Assembly: GCA_001822075.1 (NCBI GenBank)
Contig: MHPK01000006.1
Coordinates: 58,977-122,976 of the forward strand
Length of the DNA stretch: 64,000 bases
Reading direction: 5' to 3'
From: Candidatus Staskawiczbacteria bacterium RIFOXYB1_FULL_38_37
Lineage (GTDB): Bacteria; Patescibacteriota; Minisyncoccia; Minisyncoccales; Staskawiczbacteraceae
Part shown: positions 13,266 to 54,720 of the stretch, one piece after another
How the letters are laid out: each line of letters opens with the position of its first letter
Position numbering within the stretch: the stretch's first letter is position 1
Position numbers and translations under genes: made by a program
The notes under the pieces: generated by a model
Seen by the model: the letters and a program-made list of their open reading frames with translations, nothing else
Told to the model about the DNA's origin: nothing
The model's database searches: none

Positions 13266-14324
13266 TTACTGCGTCAAGGTTACTATTTTTTCCCATGGCA
13301 GATTGTCTTTGCCAAAATGCCCATAAGCTGATGTCTGGCTATAAATTGGCTGGCGCAGATTTAATCTTTCTATTATGGCTTTTGGAGTAAAATCAAAATT
13401 CTTTTTTACAATATCAACTAAACTTTCTCCTTTCTCATTTATGGCTTCCACCATTAAGGGTTCTGCTTTTCCAATTGCGTAAGCCACAGAAACAAGGCAT
13501 TTTTCAGCCAGCCCGGCAGCTACCAAATTTTTTGCGGCAAACCTGCACATATAAGCAGCTGACCTGTCTACTTTGCTGGGGTCTTTGCCAGAAAAGCATC
13601 CTCCTCCGTGCGTAATCAGCCCGCCATAAGTGTCAACCATAATTTTTCTGCCAGTAAGCCCTGCGTCTGCCTCAAACCCGCCTTGCACAAACCTGCCTGT
13701 AGGGTTTACTAAAATTTCAATTCCAGAAATATCCCCCATTGCAGGCTTTATTAATTTTTCTATAAGCTCTTTTTTAATTTCCTCTTGGCTCACATTTTCA
13801 TCGTGCTGGCAACTTACTAAAATAGTTTTTATTTTTCCGTTTTCAACTGTAATTTGAGTTTTGCCGTCTGGCTTCAGCCATTTTAAAATTCCTTGATTTC
13901 TCAAATCTTCCAAACCTTTTGCCAGCTTGTGAACCTTCACAACGGCCTCTGGCATAAATTTTTCTGTTTCGTTTGTGGCATATCCGTACATAATGCCCTG
14001 GTCCCCAGCTCCTCCTGTATCAACTCCCTGCGCAATGTCTGGAGATTGTTTTACAATGCCTGTTATAATTTTTAAATCCTGCTCGTATCCTATTTTTTTG
14101 TAAACTTCTTTTGCAATTTTTTCTGCGTCAAAATTTGCTTTTGTGGTTACCTCTCCCCCAATTACAAGCATGCCATGGTTTCCAAATGTTTCAATGCCGG
14201 CCCTTGCAAGAGGGTCTTGTTTTAAGCACTCGTCTAAAATTGCGTCTGAAATTTGGTCGCAAACTTTATCTGGATGTCCGGATGTTACGCTTTCTACTGT
14301 GTATGTTTTTGGCGTGAATATCAT
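13266..14324 (-). CDS. metK: S-adenosylmethionine synthetase
   Basis: GHPDKVCDQISDAILD signature near the N-terminus. GAGDQG motif present. Confidence 0.9.
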   Translation of the reverse strand: MIFTPKTYTVESVTSGHPDKVCDQISDAILDECLKQDPLARAGIETFGNHGMLVIGGEVTTKANFDAEKIAKEVYKKIGYEQDLKIITGIVKQSPDIAQGVDTGGAGDQGIMYGYATNETEKFMPEAVVKVHKLAKGLEDLRNQGILKWLKPDGKTQITVENGKIKTILVSCQHDENVSQEEIKKELIEKLIKPAMGDISGIEILVNPTGRFVQGGFEADAGLTGRKIMVDTYGGLITHGGGCFSGKDPSKVDRSAAYMCRFAAKNLVAAGLAEKCLVSVAYAIGKAEPLMVEAINEKGESLVDIVKKNFDFTPKAIIERLNLRQPIYSQTSAYGHFGKDNLPWEKIVTLTQ

Positions 14325-14343
14325 AGTTTTATATTTAATTGTG

Positions 14344-14415
14344 TGGGCGCGGAAGGAATCGGACCTTCGACCTCTGTCTTATCAGGACAGCGTTCTGCCA
14401 CTGAACTACGCGCCC
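14344..14415 (-). tRNA. tRNA-Ile (anticodon GAT), CCA not encoded
   Basis: Manual cloverleaf: acceptor GGGCGCG/CGCGCCC, D-arm GTTC-AGTGGCA-GAAC, anticodon stem CTGTC/GACAG with loop CTGATAA, T-stem GAAGG/CCTTC. Confidence 0.7.
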
Positions 14416-14469
14416 CGTATTAATTAACATTTTAACAAATATTTTTACTTATTGCAATAAGATTTTAGC

Positions 14470-14497
14470 AAAAAAAAGGGTCACCAGATGATGACCC
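14470..14497 (-). terminator. intrinsic terminator at the 3' end of the candidate ncRNA
   Basis: Minus strand reads gggtcatcatctggtgaccc followed by tttttttt. Confidence 0.65.
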
Positions 14498-14964
14498 TCG
14501 CGAAATGGCAGGCGCAATTTTGCTTCTGCCAAATTGCCTAGATTGTGTGCCTGCGAGTGCGCAGGCGACGTCTTATGTTGTGCCTGCGCATACGCAGGCG
14601 AGAAAAATTGTTAAAGAACGGTACGCAGGACAGTTGGCAGAGGAGATTGGAGCTGAGGATGAAAGACGTCGGGCGTCGCATCGGGGAATGCTTTTGCCGA
14701 GGACGGCCGAATCGCCTATCAAAGCCATTCAACGTGCTCTTCTCTCACAAAGCATTCTTTCTGGCCGGCGCGGCGCAAAAGAAATGCCTTGCACTGCTTT
14801 GACTACTACGATGCGAATTGCAGCGGATTAACACCGCGCATATCTCGGGATTCGAACCCGGAAGAATATCGCAGTACTCTGCCAACTGTCCGCAAAAATG
14901 AAAGCTTTTTAAAGTTTGCATTTTTGCGGACAATTAACTCTTTAAAAGTGCTATTCCTTATCTC
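14470..14964 (-). ncRNA. candidate ~500-nt GC-rich structured RNA of unknown class (promoter-to-terminator unit with no credible ORF)
   Basis: Near-consensus sigma70 promoter upstream, intrinsic terminator at the 3' end, and GC ~50% against ~35% background. A 15-bp long-range complement (14877-14891 vs 14628-14642) encloses ~260 nt. Contains a GGGTTCGAATCCCG T-arm-like hairpin, twin related hairpins at 14549-14599 and a 14-bp perfect inverted repeat at 14887-14932. Confidence 0.4.
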
Positions 14965-14970
14965 AATTTA

Positions 14971-14999
14971 ATCATACTAAAGCCACAAATCCTTGTCAA
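14971..14999 (-). promoter_or_regulatory. near-consensus sigma70 promoter (TTGACA-17 nt-TATGAT) driving the candidate ncRNA
   Basis: Minus strand: TTGACAaggatttgtggctttagTATGAT. The -35 box is at 14999-14994 and the -10 box at 14976-14971. Confidence 0.55.
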
Positions 15000-15015
15000 C
15001 CCCAAAAACTAAAAT

Positions 15016-15783
15016 TTATTGTAAATTCGTATTTTTGTCTTTGTTATAACCCTCAAATGCCCTTAAAACTTCCAGGGGCACCGCAAACACTATTGTGTTT
15101 GACTGGTCAGAACTGATGTCGTTTATTGACTGCAATGTCCTCAAATGCAAAGCTCCTTTTGCTCCGGCTAAAGTTTCAGCCGCTTTTGCCATATTATTAG
15201 CTGCCATGACTTCTCCTTCAGCTTTAATAATGATAGCCCGTTTTTCTCTTTCAGCCTCTGCCTGCTTGCCTATTACTCTTTTCATTTCTTCTGGCAAAGC
15301 AATATCTTTTAATTCAACATTGCTTACTTTAATGCCCCAGGGGTCTGTGGCAATGTCTATTATGTTTCTTATATTTTCTGAAACCCTGTCTCTTGCAGAA
15401 AGCAATTCGTCTAAATCAACCTGGCCAACAACATTTCGCATTGTTGTTTGCGCTAATTGTGAAATCGCATAAAAATAATTTTCAACTTCCAAAATAGCTT
15501 TGTCGGCATTGGCAACTTTATAATATATTACAGCATTTACTCCCACAGAAATATTATCTTTTGTAATTGCTTCCTGATTGGGAACGTCAACTGCTTTAAC
15601 TCTTAAATCCACTTTCTGGTAAGACTGCACAATCGGAAAAACCAGCCTCCATCCCGGATTCATCAGCCCGGTATATTTTCCTAAAGTAAACCTAATTCCC
15701 TTTTCATATTGGTTTATCTGCTTTATAGAAGCTAAAATAATTAAAATTACTATTGTTGAAATTATGTATGTTGAACCTGCCAT
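15016..15783 (-). CDS. SPFH/band-7 (stomatin/prohibitin/HflC-like) membrane protein
   Basis: N-terminal TM helix and an SPFH domain with a C-terminal coiled-coil region rich in AEAEREK. Confidence 0.8.
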   Translation of the reverse strand: MAGSTYIISTIVILIILASIKQINQYEKGIRFTLGKYTGLMNPGWRLVFPIVQSYQKVDLRVKAVDVPNQEAITKDNISVGVNAVIYYKVANADKAILEVENYFYAISQLAQTTMRNVVGQVDLDELLSARDRVSENIRNIIDIATDPWGIKVSNVELKDIALPEEMKRVIGKQAEAEREKRAIIIKAEGEVMAANNMAKAAETLAGAKGALHLRTLQSINDISSDQSNTIVFAVPLEVLRAFEGYNKDKNTNLQ

Positions 15784-16329: not shown

Positions 16330-16572
16330 TTACTGATTTATAATTCTATGAAACTCGTTACCTCCTTTCAATTTTTTAAGATAATTTTCCCTTTTTCTGG
16401 CTTCTGCTCTAGTGTCGAATGACTCTGTTTTGACAATCACGAAAGGAACTCTCAACCTTGTTGATTTTACCAGACCGCGGTTATGCATATCAAGTCTCTT
16501 ATTTATGTTTTCTGCTTGACCGATATAATATCCATTGTCTTTTATGCTTTTTAAAATATATACGAAAAACAT
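16330..16572 (-). CDS. GIY-YIG domain nuclease-family protein (80 aa)
   Basis: FFVYILKS...GYYIGQAENINKRLDMHN matches the GIY-YIG core (GIY, YIG, R, H/N). Confidence 0.7.
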   Translation of the reverse strand: MFFVYILKSIKDNGYYIGQAENINKRLDMHNRGLVKSTRLRVPFVIVKTESFDTRAEARKRENYLKKLKGGNEFHRIINQ

Positions 16573-18314: not shown

Positions 18315-18775
18315 ACATCAGCGAATTACGAATTAATACGAATTTACGAATTTAAATTAACTATTCTTTTCGAAATAACTCCTTTATTTGTAAAATTTAT
18401 TAAAATGGCTAATTTGAGATTTTCGGTTTTCAAATAATTAATAACTTGATCTATATGTCTTTTCGAAAATATGTTTCCTTTTTTTAATTCTACAATTATA
18501 TTATCATCCACTAAAAAATCTAAATATTGTTTTCCAATTATCTTGCCCTTATATTTTAAATCACAAACTTTCTGTTCTAAAAAATTTAAGCCGCTCTGTT
18601 TAAAAGATTCTGCCAATGCTCTTTGATAATATTTCTCATGGTATCCGGGTCCTATCTCGTTATATACATCAAACGCACAGCCCATAATCGCATAACTTAT
18701 ATCAGGATATAAAATGTCTTTTTTTCTTATTTTTTTATATTCGTACATTCGTAAAAAATTCGCTATTCGTTGATG
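18315..18775. mobile_element. family C element containing a GxxExxY (PD-(D/E)XK) gene: candidate autonomous version of the 73-bp repeat
   Basis: Left half catcagcgaattacgaattaatacgaatttacgaattt (18315-18356) and right half attcgtacattcgtaaaaaattcgctattcgttgatg (18738-18775) flank ORF 18344..18748. Both its start and stop codons lie inside repeat sequence. Confidence 0.6.
18344..18748 (-). CDS. GxxExxY-family protein (PD-(D/E)XK nuclease-like, PDDEXK_3-type)
   Basis: GPGYHEKYYQRALAESF...DFLVDDNIIVELKKG...LKLAILINF. Paralog of 48329..48748. Confidence 0.65.
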   Translation of the reverse strand: MYEYKKIRKKDILYPDISYAIMGCAFDVYNEIGPGYHEKYYQRALAESFKQSGLNFLEQKVCDLKYKGKIIGKQYLDFLVDDNIIVELKKGNIFSKRHIDQVINYLKTENLKLAILINFTNKGVISKRIVNLNS

Positions 18776-28188: not shown

Positions 28189-29910
28189 TTATGCTACTTC
28201 TTGCTGATAACATTTCTCGCAGTAAACAATTTCCGGCCTGTCGGGAGCGTAGCTTGTCTCGAATTTATTGGTACAGCCTGGCTTCATGCACTTTCTGTGC
28301 CAGAGCTTCTGTGGATTTTTCTTTTTAAATCTTTGCATGTGCCTGCAATTAAAACATAACTTTGGAACAGGCACGCTAAGCTTTCTGTATAATTGCAATT
28401 CCTCAGGAATAATCTTAAAGGCTAATGAACAGCCCTCGTTGCATTTACCGCTATGTTCACAACCAATTACTTCATTAAGAATGGTGTCTTGGGTTTCTTC
28501 GATAATATTGGGAACATTTTCTGAAGATAGAGTAACCTTATAATTCCTTTCTTCGGGCTCTCTCCAAAAATATCCTGCCCTTTCTGCCTGCTCTTTATTT
28601 TTGGGAGAATACTCTTGAGCAGCTGTTTCATTATAGGCAAATGGTGCCAGCGAAGCTGGAAAAAAACTGCCATATTTATATTCAATACCGCTTTTGTCTG
28701 TGTATGGCTGTGAATTCATGTGCTTAATTATCTTTGGCAAGAGCTCCTCGTATTCTTCTTTTGTGTATTGTTTGTTTAAGATGCAGTATTCGGCTTTTTT
28801 GATGCCTACACAACCAAAAAGATTATTAGAATTTTCACAGTTATCGCAATATTGGCAATCATAATCATTCCAAACACAAAAACTAAACTTAACGTTGTTG
28901 AGATTTATAGCGCTTACAATTTCATAAGAAAAAGATGATTTATCAACAACAACATACCCATCATGACAATTATTTGAATTATCTCCCCAAGTTAAATATT
29001 TAGAGTCTTCTATGGCGTTAGAACCATAGCATTCAAAACTGTTTTTGGAATTAAAAACATAATCACCAACCACATTTACATTCTTAATACCGTGCATGTA
29101 TTTGGCTATGTTTTCTCCAAAAAATTTATTAGCTTTTGCTAAAACGGCGTCCATCCCTTCACGGGTTTGCAAATTTGATTCTTCAATTTTTTTAAGATAC
29201 TCTTCTTTTGTGTAGGGCTTGTTAAAAATATAATAATTTTTGTTCTTTAAATTTACGCAACCCACGCAGTCTTGGCAATTTGAACAATTTTTAGAGGCCA
29301 CAACATTCCGACAATCAGTGCAGTCTTCAGAAAATTTTGTCATGTAACACTTTTTGCAACCAATACATTCATAGCAAAGCTCGCAATCGTTTGAGGTGTG
29401 GCAATCAATAGCGTTTCTTGAGTGCATAAGCGAATAAGAATAAAGGGAATCTTCATTGTTATCGCTCACAAAAATCATGTAGCAGTTTTTATCATATGCG
29501 GCTCCGTTAACATATTCGCTGTTTGTATTCTGAAAAATAAAAGAATACAAACGTGGCACCCGAAGCTGGAGTTCTCGAAACTGATCAAAAAACGGCCTAG
29601 AAAAATCGTATTCTCTTCCAAAACTCAACGTGTCCCATTTGTCGCCGTGATAGCATTCATTGCAATAAACTGCATACGGCGATTTTGGTGAATAAATAGA
29701 AATTATATTTTTTCTACAAAGGTCGCAGGTGCGGCGATAAAGAGTTCTTTCATTCCTCCATACAACCCGCCTTATAAAACGGCACTCCGGACACCATGTT
29801 GGCGCAGGCACTTTTATTTTTTCATAGAATGCAAAGTCGTCAGGCTCTATTACAAAGTCCTTTTTGCAATTTTGGCATATTTTTGTTTCAGAATTTTTAT
29901 TCATGATCAT
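28189..29910 (-). CDS. cysteine-rich multi-zinc-ribbon protein, paralog P1 (uncharacterised family)
   Basis: 573 aa with ~60 Cys. N-terminal CQNCKKDFVIEPDDFAFYEKIKVPAPTWCPECR, internal duplicated Cys-cluster modules each ending CILNKQYTKEEY, and C-terminal SYAPDRPEIVYCEKCYQQEVA. Paralogous to 31071..32840, 50111..51772, 55188..56840 and 57529..59244. Confidence 0.6.
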   Translation of the reverse strand: MIMNKNSETKICQNCKKDFVIEPDDFAFYEKIKVPAPTWCPECRFIRRVVWRNERTLYRRTCDLCRKNIISIYSPKSPYAVYCNECYHGDKWDTLSFGREYDFSRPFFDQFRELQLRVPRLYSFIFQNTNSEYVNGAAYDKNCYMIFVSDNNEDSLYSYSLMHSRNAIDCHTSNDCELCYECIGCKKCYMTKFSEDCTDCRNVVASKNCSNCQDCVGCVNLKNKNYYIFNKPYTKEEYLKKIEESNLQTREGMDAVLAKANKFFGENIAKYMHGIKNVNVVGDYVFNSKNSFECYGSNAIEDSKYLTWGDNSNNCHDGYVVVDKSSFSYEIVSAINLNNVKFSFCVWNDYDCQYCDNCENSNNLFGCVGIKKAEYCILNKQYTKEEYEELLPKIIKHMNSQPYTDKSGIEYKYGSFFPASLAPFAYNETAAQEYSPKNKEQAERAGYFWREPEERNYKVTLSSENVPNIIEETQDTILNEVIGCEHSGKCNEGCSLAFKIIPEELQLYRKLSVPVPKLCFNCRHMQRFKKKNPQKLWHRKCMKPGCTNKFETSYAPDRPEIVYCEKCYQQEVA

Positions 29911-30376
29911 TTTTTAATAATTTAATCTGCGGATTTTTAGCCTCAATAAAACCTTCGATTGTTTTAATAAATGTTTCGGCCAAATCAATAGCTTTTTGCG
30001 CCTCGGTCATAGATATCGTAAGCCCCACTCCATAAATCAAATAGTTCCTATCTTCTCTTGTCTTATCAAATCTTCCCACCAAACTTTTATAATCATTGCC
30101 AAGTATATCCCCCACAAATTGCACTACAATTTTATGAGAGCCCGCCGCGCGCGGACGCAAATTATGTGAAAAAATAAGCGCTCGGCCGGACAAAAGCATG
30201 GCATCATAAGCCAACTGAAAGCTATTGTCGGAGTCTTCATTTTCAATTAAAAGACGGGAACTTTTTAGTTTTTTATAAGCGTTCTCTATGAGTTTTTGAA
30301 CTTTATCAAATCCAATTTCTTCCTTCTTGAGCAAACCCTTATTGACTAATTCTTCGTAATTCATTTTCGTTGCCAA
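29897..30376 (-). CDS. HEPN domain protein (toxin-like partner of the adjacent nucleotidyltransferase)
   Basis: 159 aa with R-x4-6-H motif RPRAAGSHK. Overlaps the upstream NTase gene. Confidence 0.6.
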   Translation of the reverse strand: MATKMNYEELVNKGLLKKEEIGFDKVQKLIENAYKKLKSSRLLIENEDSDNSFQLAYDAMLLSGRALIFSHNLRPRAAGSHKIVVQFVGDILGNDYKSLVGRFDKTREDRNYLIYGVGLTISMTEAQKAIDLAETFIKTIEGFIEAKNPQIKLLKNDHE

Positions 30377-30914
30377 ATATAAAAATTTTTATGTTCTTAA
30401 AAATGCTTAAAATAAAAGAGTCTTTCTCTTTTATTCTTTTCCGCCAATCTTTTTCAGAAAAAATTCGGTAATTTATTTCACGGGAAAGCTTTCTTTCTAA
30501 ATCGCTTATTTTATTAAAAAATTTATCTTCATCGGGTTCGCCAATTATCATTAAATCAATGTCTGATAAAGAGTCTTCCTCTTGTTTCGCAAACGAGCCG
30601 AATATAAAAATGATTTTCACATTCTCAACATTTTCAAATATTTCTTTCAATTTTCCCTCAGCGCCAAGTGTTTTAAAAAAAATACTCTTTACTTCATTAT
30701 ACAGCGGATACTCCTTGTTTATTTTAAAAAAACGGCTATTGGCTTTTTTATCGCTTAAAAGAATTTTATTTTTAACTAGGCTTTCTATGTCTTTCTGAAA
30801 AACACCAGGCTTTTTATTCAAAATCCGGCCAATTTGCCTGAAATAATAATCTTTCTCCGGATCTTTAAAGAAAAGTTCAAGAATCAGTGTTTGATTTTTA
30901 GTAAAGTTTAACAT
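30339..30914 (-). CDS. minimal nucleotidyltransferase (MNT/Pol-beta-like) with C-terminal extension
   Basis: GSFAKQEEDSLSDIDLMIIGE (GS...DxD motif). Confidence 0.7.
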   Translation of the reverse strand: MLNFTKNQTLILELFFKDPEKDYYFRQIGRILNKKPGVFQKDIESLVKNKILLSDKKANSRFFKINKEYPLYNEVKSIFFKTLGAEGKLKEIFENVENVKIIFIFGSFAKQEEDSLSDIDLMIIGEPDEDKFFNKISDLERKLSREINYRIFSEKDWRKRIKEKDSFILSIFKNIKIFIFGNENELRRISQ

Positions 30915-33017: not shown

Positions 33018-33100
33018 ATAAACGGCTTCGGCCCGACTCTGCCGCAAGGCAGAGGTAAAAAAACAAAAAAATTCAAGGTATCAATTCCTTGAATTTTTTT
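33018..33100 (+). ncRNA. candidate ~85-nt sRNA, antisense to the 3' end of the MazF-like gene
   Basis: Defined only by the upstream consensus promoter and the downstream hairpin + T-run terminator. Contains internal hairpin ctctgccgcaaggcagag. Confidence 0.3.
33069..33100. terminator. bidirectional intrinsic terminator
   Basis: aattcaaggtatcaattccttgaatttttttg with T/A runs on both sides. Confidence 0.6.
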
Positions 33101-33462
33101 GTTAATTTTTCAAAATCATCTGTTTTCATAACGCCTATTTTGTGATCCAAACGCCTAGCATCTATAAGTCTTATCTGAGACAGAATTGCAGCACTCTTAG
33201 CGTTATCCTGAAAAATAAACTGAAAATAAAATTTTGACTCTTTTTCGGTGCGAGTTAATGGGAATGCCAAAAAAATCTCGTTATTAAATTTTTTATAAAT
33301 AATCACTGGCCTCAAAAAATCTGTGCCCCTGCCATCCTGCTCAAAACCAACGTTTACACCCATAGCGCAATACCAAACTTCGCGCTCGTGAAAAAACGGC
33401 CTTGGTTCAATTTTGTTAATCAGTGCTTTTTTATTATGCCATTTTGTGTAATCTTTCATCAT
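33073..33462 (-). CDS. PemK/MazF-family toxin-like protein (no adjacent protein antitoxin)
   Basis: VGFEQDGRGTDFLRPVIIYKK...FLAFPLTRTEK...SQIRLIDARRLDHKIGVMKTDDFEKL matches the MazF/Kid pattern (GxEQxG, RPxlv, PxTs, IRxiDxxRL). Confidence 0.65.
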   Translation of the reverse strand: MMKDYTKWHNKKALINKIEPRPFFHEREVWYCAMGVNVGFEQDGRGTDFLRPVIIYKKFNNEIFLAFPLTRTEKESKFYFQFIFQDNAKSAAILSQIRLIDARRLDHKIGVMKTDDFEKLTKKFKELIP

Positions 33463-48277: not shown

Positions 48278-48772
48278 AATGCAAATCTACAAATCTTATG
48301 CTAATGAATGCGAAAATGCGAATATCGGTTATTCTTTTGCTAAAGAATTTAATATCCTTTTAGGAACTATATATTTTTTTCTAAAATTGACTAAAATTCC
48401 TAGTTTTTTGTTCAAAGCAGTTAAATATCTTTTCACCTGATAATAATCTTCAGTGATGAGTAGTTTTTTAGCTTTTACTTCTAATATTATTTTATCTTCA
48501 ATTAAAAAATCGACTTTATTTCTACCTTCTGCCTCGCCTTCAAAAGCCGGAGGTAAAATTTTTTCTCTTCTGTAATTTATATTTATTTTTTTAAGATAAC
48601 TTTCTATAAGGTCGCAGTATTGTTTTTCATTAAGAAATTGACCTAACTCATTATGAACTGCGAATAGAATCCCATTAATTTTGTAAGATAAATCTGAATA
48701 AATTACTTTTTCCATAAAAATCACATTCGCATTTTTGTAGATTAGCATACCATTCGCCGTATTTGCATTTTA
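48276..48772. mobile_element. family B element split by a GxxExxY gene: candidate autonomous copy (empty copy at 21152-21250)
   Basis: Left half 48276-48323 (ataatgcaaatctacaaatcttatgctaatgaatgcgaaaatgcgaat) and right half 48725-48772 (attcgcatttttgtagattagcataccattcgccgtatttgcatttta) flank ORF 48329..48748. At 21152-21250 the same two halves are contiguous. Confidence 0.65.
48329..48748 (-). CDS. GxxExxY-family protein (PD-(D/E)XK nuclease-like), paralog of 18344..18748
   Basis: GILFAVHNELGQFLNEKQYCDLIESYL...VDFLIEDKIILEVKAKK...KLGILVNF. Confidence 0.65.
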   Translation of the reverse strand: MLIYKNANVIFMEKVIYSDLSYKINGILFAVHNELGQFLNEKQYCDLIESYLKKININYRREKILPPAFEGEAEGRNKVDFLIEDKIILEVKAKKLLITEDYYQVKRYLTALNKKLGILVNFRKKYIVPKRILNSLAKE

Positions 48773-54059: not shown

Positions 54060-54386
54060 TTATTTTAAATAATCTTCAATTTTATCAATTAAGTCAGGGA
54101 TATCCATTTGCATGGTATTCCAAATCTGGACTAAATCAATGTCAAAATATTCGTGAACAGCCATATTGCGAAAACCCATAATCATACGCCACGGCAAATC
54201 AATTGCTAATTTTATTTCTTCGGGCAGCTTTTTTGCTTCTTCTCCAATCACAATCAATTTCATAATAACCGCGCTTTGAGTTTTATTGTCAGCCAAAAAA
54301 TCTTTCTTCGACATTTTGTCACAATATCCAATCGCCTCATTTGCCTTATCAACAATATTTTTTAAATATATATTGCTATCTTTCAT
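54060..54386 (-). CDS. HEPN/DUF86-family protein (toxin-like)
   Basis: 108 aa, RNMAVHEY (Rx4-6H). Confidence 0.65.
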   Translation of the reverse strand: MKDSNIYLKNIVDKANEAIGYCDKMSKKDFLADNKTQSAVIMKLIVIGEEAKKLPEEIKLAIDLPWRMIMGFRNMAVHEYFDIDLVQIWNTMQMDIPDLIDKIEDYLK

Positions 54387-54720
54387 AAATTAAAGTTAGG
54401 TCTTTTTCAATGTATGGCTTAATATATTTATTTATCGCTCTGTCAGAAACCAGGTCAACATTTTTTCCCAAAGCGTCTTCCAAGTCATACTTAAGGCCGA
54501 TAAATTTATAGACCCCCATTTCGTCGCCCAAACGGACTAAAAAATCAATATCACTATCCGGCCCGTTCTCCCCTCTGGCGGCGCTGCCAAAAACCGCGGC
54601 AGATTGAATGCCATATTTTTTAAAGACAGGAGCAGATTTTTTTTTGATAATTTCTATATCCATTTTTTTGACGCCTCGCGGACACATTTTTAATATAACA
54701 TAAAATTTATAAAATTTCAA
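54376..54720 (-). CDS. minimal nucleotidyltransferase (MNT; antitoxin-like partner of the HEPN protein)
   Basis: FGSAARGENGPDSDIDFLV. Confidence 0.7.
   Translation of the reverse strand: MKFYKFYVILKMCPRGVKKMDIEIIKKKSAPVFKKYGIQSAAVFGSAARGENGPDSDIDFLVRLGDEMGVYKFIGLKYDLEDALGKNVDLVSDRAINKYIKPYIEKDLTLIYER

Follow-up and report, generated by a model that had tools for sequence, protein, structure and literature searches.

What is encoded by the GC-rich interval that lies directly upstream of a tRNA-Ile gene in Candidatus Staskawiczbacteria bacterium RIFOXYB1_FULL_38_37? The interval is part of a 64,000-nucleotide (nt) stretch of contig MHPK01000006.1 (assembly GCA_001822075.1, positions 58,977 to 122,976 of the forward strand), which is referred to here as the window and whose own numbering is used throughout. 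A preliminary description, made from the letters of the window, had proposed that it holds a structured RNA of about 500 nt, running from promoter to terminator and of unassigned class. The analysis described here shows that this is a real, conserved, independently transcribed and non-coding RNA gene without an assigned class. It represents a previously unannotated structured RNA family in a lineage of the candidate phyla radiation (CPR), and the known RNA closest to it in kind is the boxA-containing leader of ribosomal RNA (rrn) operons. Based on the sequence comparisons presented below, we propose, at roughly even odds (a probability of about 0.5), that it is a stand-alone leader RNA gene of the rRNA-operon type, in which the nascent boxA would load NusB-S10 onto RNA polymerase.

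We focused on the transcription signals that delimit the RNA, all of which are found on the minus strand, as are the other features of the RNA and the tRNA-Ile gene described below. The sigma-70 promoter (14971-14999) is composed of TTGACA (14994-14999), a 17-nt spacer and TATGAT (14971-14976), matching the consensus at 11 of 12 positions, and transcription is predicted to start near position 14964. At the other end, the intrinsic terminator (14470-14499) is formed by a 10-bp stem (14499-14476) followed by U8 (T8 in the DNA). The predicted transcript (14468-14964) is 497 nt long and has a GC content of 49%, with values of 0.51-0.54 over positions 14500-14899, versus 0.37 for the whole window. 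The near-consensus promoter, the strong terminator and the GC-rich interval reported in the preliminary description are thereby borne out, together with the adjacency to tRNA-Ile(GAU) (14343-14415) and metK (13266-14324, downstream of the tRNA). Moreover, the whole RNA folds with -198.9 kcal/mol, as compared to -146.6 +/- 7.1 kcal/mol for 100 dinucleotide shuffles, none of which equalled it (z -7.4). The tRNA-Ile gene is provided with a separate extended -10 promoter, TTGCAA-17-TAAAAT with TG before it (14429-14457).

The same unit is present in eight other Staskawiczbacteria-like lineages, which together with the window make up the nine lineages compared in this work. A search with nhmmer using the whole RNA against 83 loci returned identical copies only, with none among the 80 metK-linked loci of other species, and homologues were recognised only through their architecture and a motif in the RNA tail. 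The closest locus, L004, in which metK is 83% identical, shows the same arrangement just 5' of tRNA-Ile(GAU): a TTGACA-17-TAATAT promoter, a GC-rich RNA closed by GGGCAGCUGGUAGGA...UCCUACCAGCUGUCC (fold z-score of -6.3), a pyrimidine-rich tail and a terminator. The tail motif was taken as the sole sequence common to the window and L004, before it was recognised as boxA. Scanning metagenomes with it yielded 47 loci, three of which are genuine (the L004-like L095 and L120, and L100, which represents a further lineage), the rest being chance matches, and the scan of viral contigs returned nothing. In addition, L131, L132, L134, L135, L136 and L137 were included from contigs encoding metK homologues of 78-91% identity. 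In all nine lineages, the RNA is located immediately 5' of tRNA-Ile(GAU) and on the same strand, a TTGAC(A/G/C)-17-TAnnAT promoter is found at the equivalent place, a GC-rich terminator hairpin with a U-tract closes the unit (with differing stem sequences), and a comparable TG-TAnnAT extended -10 promoter precedes the tRNA. Genes farther upstream vary by lineage, encoding the SPFH/Band-7 protein found in the window, a response regulator, GIY-YIG and tRNA-Gln, or gatCA; therefore, the conserved pair is that of the RNA and the tRNA.

The homologues follow a common plan which comprises, from 5' to 3', an optional leader, a 5' hairpin, the 5' strand of a long-range helix (P1), a core, the 3' strand of P1, a linker of 4-9 nt, a conserved single-stranded block, a hairpin, a variable extension and the terminator. 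In the window, a purine-rich leader (GAGAUAAGGAAUAG..., 14936-14964) is followed by the 5' hairpin, a 25-nt inverted repeat at 14884-14935 with strands 14919-14935 and 14884-14900, while P1 is a perfect 15-bp pairing of GGACAGUUGGCAGAG (14877-14891) with CUCUGCCAACUGUCC (14628-14642). A 14-bp perfect inverted repeat and the 15-bp pairing had been noticed earlier, and comparison of the homologues showed that both helices covary. To that end, strands were registered by hand, and scores were compared to those of 500 shuffles. For P1 (seven distinct rows from the nine lineages, with N in place of single-base deletions), 96% of the cells are paired and double-sided changes occur in 5 of the 15 pairs; no shuffle reached this score, and sliding the partner strand by 1-3 columns left 23-47% paired. 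For the 17-bp 5' hairpin (seven distinct rows from eight lineages), 94% of the cells are paired, with double-sided changes in 5 pairs and a score again reached by 0 of 500 shuffles; the transcript of L004 begins at P1 and lacks this hairpin. In the window, the first 8 nt of the P1 5' strand also belong to the 3' strand of the hairpin. As the two conserved helices share GGACAGUU, they are mutually exclusive, which implies either an ordered folding, in which the hairpin forms first and is displaced by the distal strand, or a switch.

The region enclosed by P1 behaves quite differently. In the window, this GC-rich core (14643-14876; 54% GC over the P1-to-P1 span) contains the helix P2 (14868-14876 with 14804-14812), a T-loop-like hairpin GGGUUCGAAUCCCG (14844-14861) and a GUGCAA motif (14787-14798). 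In the relatives, the P1-to-P1 span (counted with both P1 strands) measures 156-348 nt, has a GC content of 46-58% and is unalignable between subgroups, and core stability stays high across lineages, at -0.33 to -0.46 kcal/mol per nt. The 5' half of the core can be aligned among the window, L131 and L132, which form a subgroup, and its hairpin stems are kept by compensatory changes while the loops differ: the 'T-arm' GGGUUCGAAUCCC of the window is replaced by GGGGUUUUAAUCCC in L131 and by GGGAUUUAAAUCCC in L132. The T-arm-like hairpin pointed out in the preliminary description does exist in the window, but the relatives do not share its T-loop-like loop, and a T-arm or tRNA-like module was rejected for that reason. 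Similarly, the twin hairpins (14582-14599 and 14549-14566) are both present, but the second is a duplication restricted to the window lineage; it belongs to the 3' extension (14500-14581), which differs between lineages. In the RNA interior of L131, a threefold tandem repeat of CGCGACAUUC was also observed (1750-1790), indicating that the core changes by local duplication.

The most informative element of the RNA, absent from the preliminary description, lies directly after P1. In surroundings that are otherwise unalignable, the nine lineages share the block G(U/C)UCUUUnnCAAUUUUCUC, i.e., G(U/C)UC(U/C)UUnnCA(A/U)UUUUCUC, which is among the most conserved parts of the RNA: 7 of the 14 invariant columns of the shell alignment fall in it, and it reads G-Y-U-C-Y-U-U-n-n-C-A in 9 of 9 lineages, the G, U, C, U, U and the C, A being invariant. 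In the window, this block is the boxA-type element GUUCUUUAACAAUUUUUCUC (14600-14619), single-stranded between P1 and the next hairpin, with a gap to P1 of 8 nt (4-9 nt in the relatives). When GUUCUUUAACAAUUUUUC of the window is compared with GCUCUUUAACAAUUUAUC, the boxA of the E. coli rrnH leader, 16 of 18 positions are identical over GYUCUUUAACAAUUUWUC, and the match takes in the flanking AAUUU. In E. coli rrnH, the segment ...ACUGCUCUUUAACAAUUUAUCAG... is found a few nt after a stem, just downstream of promoter P2, and its counterpart in the window is ...ACCGUUCUUUAACAAUUUUUCUC...; the E. coli 16S-23S spacer holds a second boxA, GCUCUUUAAAAAUC. NusB-NusE have been reported to recognise approximately 8 nt, in which the key contacts are made with G2, C5 and C6/U6 and a C6U change is tolerated (PMC3177189). 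The RNA carries such a boxA sequence (E. coli rrn UGCUCUUUAACAA; key G2, C5 and Y6) in single-stranded form, and the contact positions G2, C5 and Y6 are either invariant or Y among the homologues, so that the GUUCUUUAACAA segment is a predicted NusB-S10 binding site. The full motif occurs, at 0 mismatches, once in the window, and boxA-like 12-mers in other Parcubacteria loci were set aside as chance matches inside genes. Altogether, it is the presence of boxA directly after a long-range helix that ties this RNA to rRNA-operon leaders.

The boxA is followed by the hairpin GCCUGCGUAUGCGCAGGC (14582-14599). A hairpin is found at this position in eight of the nine lineages, with differing sequences, and in L100 the terminator comes directly after boxA; accordingly, the order of promoter, P1-closed domain, 4-9 nt, boxA and hairpin holds in 8 of 9 lineages. 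We considered whether this hairpin could be a boxC, but resemblance to E. coli UGUGUGGGC was seen in L131 only and was taken as chance. L135, L136 and L137 carry an additional boxA-like motif, AUAGUUCCUUAACAUUUC, at the start of the leader, where it immediately precedes the 5' hairpin. A further candidate helix, P0, pairing the 5' leader with boxA, was discarded, as it was no better than with shuffled leaders (z -0.02 to -0.5).

Known RNA families do not account for the element. The window and the eight relatives were scanned against Rfam 15, using gathering scores as well as permissive E-values. At gathering scores, the whole window gave four tRNAs and nothing else; at E<=10, positions 14300-15150 gave only noise and no family for the RNA, and the L004 RNA had no family match either; at E<=1, no family was assigned to the RNA in the eight relatives, save for a sub-threshold match to Bacilli-1 RNA in L131. 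There was no covariance-model match to tmRNA, RNase P, SRP, 6S, GOLLD, ROOL, HEARO, OLE, raiA, Y RNA, introns or riboswitches, and ARAGORN detected no tmRNA, in agreement with the exclusion of tmRNA, RNase P, SRP and 6S in the preliminary description. Its suggestion of a GOLLD- or ROOL-like RNA is unsupported, and two of the features behind it, the T-arm-like hairpin and the twin hairpins, are not conserved.

A coding function was likewise rejected. The open reading frames (ORFs) of the interval, described earlier as short and compositionally odd, are indeed so: none has a Pfam match, including a 108-aa antisense ORF with a low-complexity, Arg- and Ala-rich translation, and interior lengths and frames are not kept in the relatives. 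Public annotations call hypothetical proteins antisense to the RNA, at 14505-14831 of the window (plus strand, 108 aa) and at 1493-2089 of L134 (minus strand, 198 aa). These calls are most likely annotation artefacts due to the local GC-richness, meaning that gene callers currently mislabel the RNA region of the window as a 108-aa hypothetical protein. Since no second copy was found within the 64-kb window and the site 5' of tRNA-Ile is fixed in the nine lineages, a mobile element such as a miniature inverted-repeat transposable element was dismissed. A retron msr-msd was discarded as well: despite the P1-like inverted repeat, the RNA is flanked by the SPFH protein gene, tRNA-Ile and metK, and no reverse transcriptase gene was found beside the window RNA or any of its homologues. 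Finally, a riboswitch or attenuator was rejected on the basis that the core varies widely, tRNA-Ile owns a conserved promoter and metK of the relatives has a separate S-adenosylmethionine (SAM-I) riboswitch.

The system that most resembles this RNA is the E. coli rrn leader, with its boxB-boxA-boxC arrangement and leader-trailer helices. Both have a strong promoter, a stem, a single-stranded boxA (16/18 to that of rrnH) and a further helix; in both, a stable RNA is enclosed by a long-range helix, and tRNA-Ile(GAU) adjoins. This tRNA is the canonical 16S-23S spacer tRNA, being the first spacer gene in the E. coli order rrsH-ileV-alaV-rrlH. With the order of promoter, stem, boxA and helix, the long-range covarying helix and the spacer tRNA, the locus has what makes up the control shell of an rRNA operon, but no rRNA. 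Several differences should be considered, however. Here no rRNA follows, and approximately 300-600 nt are transcribed before an intrinsic terminator is reached; the position of boxB is occupied by the variable domain of 156-348 nt; the conserved 5' hairpin competes with the closing helix; and Nus binding is predicted from sequence. An rRNA leader-trailer helix would be a long-range, covarying helix that surrounds a stable RNA and is cut by RNase III; P1 is long-range and covarying, but it has 15 bp and surrounds a core that is not rRNA.

In rrn leaders, P2 is followed by boxB, then boxA and then boxC, and the rrn antitermination complex requires boxA, which is also sufficient for it to form (PMC10250234). 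By analogy, the following sequence of events may be envisaged. The strong sigma-70 promoter would drive the non-coding transcript of approximately 500 nt, in which the 5' hairpin would form first. Once the core has been made, the downstream strand CUCUGCCAACUGUCC would take GGACAGUU from the hairpin, thereby forming the 15-bp closing helix P1, a possible analogue of the rRNA leader-trailer helix or of boxB. The single-stranded boxA 3' of P1 would then bring NusB-S10, and with their help NusA and NusG, to the elongating polymerase, as happens in rrn antitermination complexes. Transcription would pass the small hairpin and end at the strong intrinsic terminator, with tRNA-Ile(GAU) following under its own promoter. 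Regarding its origin, the RNA probably goes back to the separation of the rRNA genes from one another: an rRNA-operon leader or spacer would have been stranded beside the spacer tRNA-Ile and kept under selection ever since. rRNA genes that are unlinked have been reported to be common in Patescibacteria (bioRxiv 10.1101/705046), which makes a remnant of this kind next to tRNA-Ile the most economical origin.

Nevertheless, a number of observations weigh against a stand-alone rRNA-type leader. The defining requirement of an rrn leader is an rRNA gene downstream in the same transcript, and an intrinsic terminator is found instead; furthermore, no rRNA gene is present in the 64-kb window or at the eight homologous loci. 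Complexes of the rrn type are known mainly for countering Rho-dependent termination, and not intrinsic terminators. By the time boxA is reached, most of the RNA has been made and a strong terminator is only about 100-250 nt away, so that antitermination in cis would have little to act on. None of the 29 window ORFs scanned (9 + 20) encodes NusB, S10 or NusG. Moreover, L141, which shares the gene order of L135-L137 (mreB-gatC-gatA-tRNA-Ile-SAM-metK), has 33 nt before tRNA-Ile and no such RNA there, so that the element can be lost, and is thus dispensable, or moved. The covariation counts, in turn, are supportive and short of conclusive, as they derive from seven distinct rows of related sequences with strands registered by hand.

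With boxA having almost no target in cis, the RNA might instead be a stable, trans-acting molecule that displays boxA, working as a NusB-S10 decoy or reservoir that tunes rRNA antitermination, or as a detached pre-rRNA leader acting on the unlinked 16S transcript. This would agree with a discrete unit that keeps its own promoter and strong terminator in nine lineages, with hairpins guarding both ends and boxA held single-stranded between two helices, and with a core that is stable and unconstrained in sequence, as expected of a scaffold. We find it unlikely, since a single boxA per RNA (two in L135-L137) would make a poor sponge unless the RNA were very abundant, and the RNA is not at the equivalent site in L141. 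Slightly less probable still is the specific version in which a detached rRNA leader has been kept as a free, stable RNA where the rRNA genes are unlinked. As a boxA decoy or reservoir, it would set NusB-S10 availability for rRNA transcription, becoming a '6S-like' regulator of the antitermination machinery; as a guide, it would assist pre-rRNA folding and processing in trans, functionally resembling the eukaryotic U3. It is equally conceivable, and to us just as doubtful as a trans-acting RNA in general, that the element is a cis-acting leader of tRNA-Ile, and of metK, in which the boxA-modified polymerase reads through the terminator and the upstream promoter feeds the downstream genes. The invariable adjacency to tRNA-Ile on the same strand and the location of boxA upstream of the terminator would fit, as would the loss of the SAM riboswitch from metK in the window and L137, where metK lies about 20 nt past the tRNA. 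Every lineage, however, retains a strong GC-rich hairpin with a U-tract, and in each of them tRNA-Ile is served by its own conserved extended -10 promoter. Moreover, tRNA-Ile is expressed in L141, where the element is lacking, and no rrn-type complex is known to bypass strong intrinsic terminators.

The resemblance to boxA could also be fortuitous, with the RNA being an unrelated, lineage-specific structured RNA whose pyrimidine-rich tail serves as a pairing seed or as the site of another protein. Single-stranded tails rich in U and C are common before the terminator of regulatory small RNAs, the boxA consensus is short and AT-rich in an AT-rich genome, and no Rfam family covers the RNA. Yet the 16/18 match to the E. 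coli rrn boxA extends into the flanking AAUUU, the invariant positions are those contacted by NusB-NusE, the full motif is unique in the window, and the order of promoter, stem, boxA and hairpin next to tRNA-Ile agrees with a genuine boxA; a look-alike seems to us no more credible than read-through. Accordingly, a trans-acting decoy or guide, read-through and a boxA look-alike are each rated below a stand-alone rRNA-type leader. Far less plausible than any of these is that the RNA has lost its function and is decaying, or that it was inserted as foreign or mobile DNA. The wide variation of the interior, with indels and the tandem triplication of L131, and the absence from L141 could be taken in its favour. 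On the other hand, the RNA is single-copy in the window and fixed in position, and boxA, promoter and terminator persist even though nearby intergenic DNA is unalignable, to the point that nhmmer misses L004. As two helices are, in addition, maintained by compensatory changes and the GC content is far above that of a 37% GC genome, we conclude that the RNA is not a decaying relic.

Comparison with other systems helps to place the RNA. Re-use of boxA beyond rRNA operons is documented, e.g., before CRISPR arrays, with a consensus that drifts with phylogenetic distance (PMC7665894). In CRISPR array leaders (PMC7665894) and in the suhB 5' untranslated region, boxA stands upstream of long untranslated or regulated transcripts and recruits Nus factors; there, boxA precedes the RNA that it protects, whereas here the RNA is short and self-contained and has boxA close to its 3' end. 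ROOL, GOLLD, raiA and OLE are, similarly, GC-rich structured RNAs of hundreds of nt, running from promoter to terminator in AT-rich genomes and often located near tRNAs, but no covariance model of these matches, and their interior is conserved while that of the present RNA is not. Bacilli-1 RNA (RF02931) resembles positions 1812-1862 of L131, a hairpin followed by single-stranded GCUUnGCAnAGCUAnAAAnUG, with 26.6 bits; this falls short of the gathering score of 55.6 bits, the segment belongs to the variable 3' extension, missing in most lineages, and the window itself gives no match. The GCUUnGCAnAGCUAnAAAnUG-type hairpin and motif of L131 are weakly paralleled at 14517-14537 of the window.

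If the proposed reading is correct, a boxA/Nus signal would be carried by a self-contained small RNA gene, instead of standing at the head of rRNA operons, CRISPR arrays or mRNAs. The RNA would also illustrate the fate of rRNA-operon control elements after operon dismantling, which is common in CPR bacteria, and would provide a natural test case for the action of a boxA RNA outside cis antitermination. Whatever the mechanism, an unannotated structured RNA family with two conserved, mutually exclusive helices is added to a poorly known phylum.

Some further observations were made at the related loci. In L141, a 580-nt GC-rich non-coding gap (1378-1957) separates mreB from gatC, which are 34 nt apart in L137; it was rejected as a relocated copy of the RNA, since it has no shared motifs, no Rfam match and z-scores of -0.5 (plus strand) and -2.05 (minus strand). 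In L135 (2114-2145) and L136 (2163-2194), a 5' fragment of tRNA-Ile (...TAGTTCAG then CTTGCCCCGTTAGACTT) stands directly before the intact tRNA-Ile and looks like the scar of recombination at the tRNA gene. Between tRNA-Gln and the RNA promoter, L134 has a GC-rich run of multiple hairpins (1580-1790) without an Rfam match, whose loops (CUCUGG-type) resemble the anticodon arm of tRNA-Gln, and the opposite-strand 198-aa ORF mentioned above is called across it. A SAM-I riboswitch was found before metK in L004, L132, L134, L135 and L136, and as a sub-threshold match in L131; by eye only, it was also seen in L138, L141 and L142. It is missing between tRNA-Ile and metK in the window (14324-14343) and in L137 (2478-2501), and in these two metK begins about 20 nt past tRNA-Ile and is presumably co-transcribed with it.

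As to the window at large, nearly all of its genes and all four tRNAs are on the minus strand, the RNA gene being co-oriented with this majority, and GC skew is negative throughout 1-64000. In addition, the window encodes two HEPN/HepT-nucleotidyltransferase pairs (29897-30914 and 54060-54720), a MazF-like toxin (33073-33462), two PDDEXK_3 nucleases (18344-18748 and 48329-48748) and a small GIY-YIG protein (16330-16572), which is a dense set of toxin-antitoxin or nuclease-type genes considering that 64 kb of a small genome are covered.

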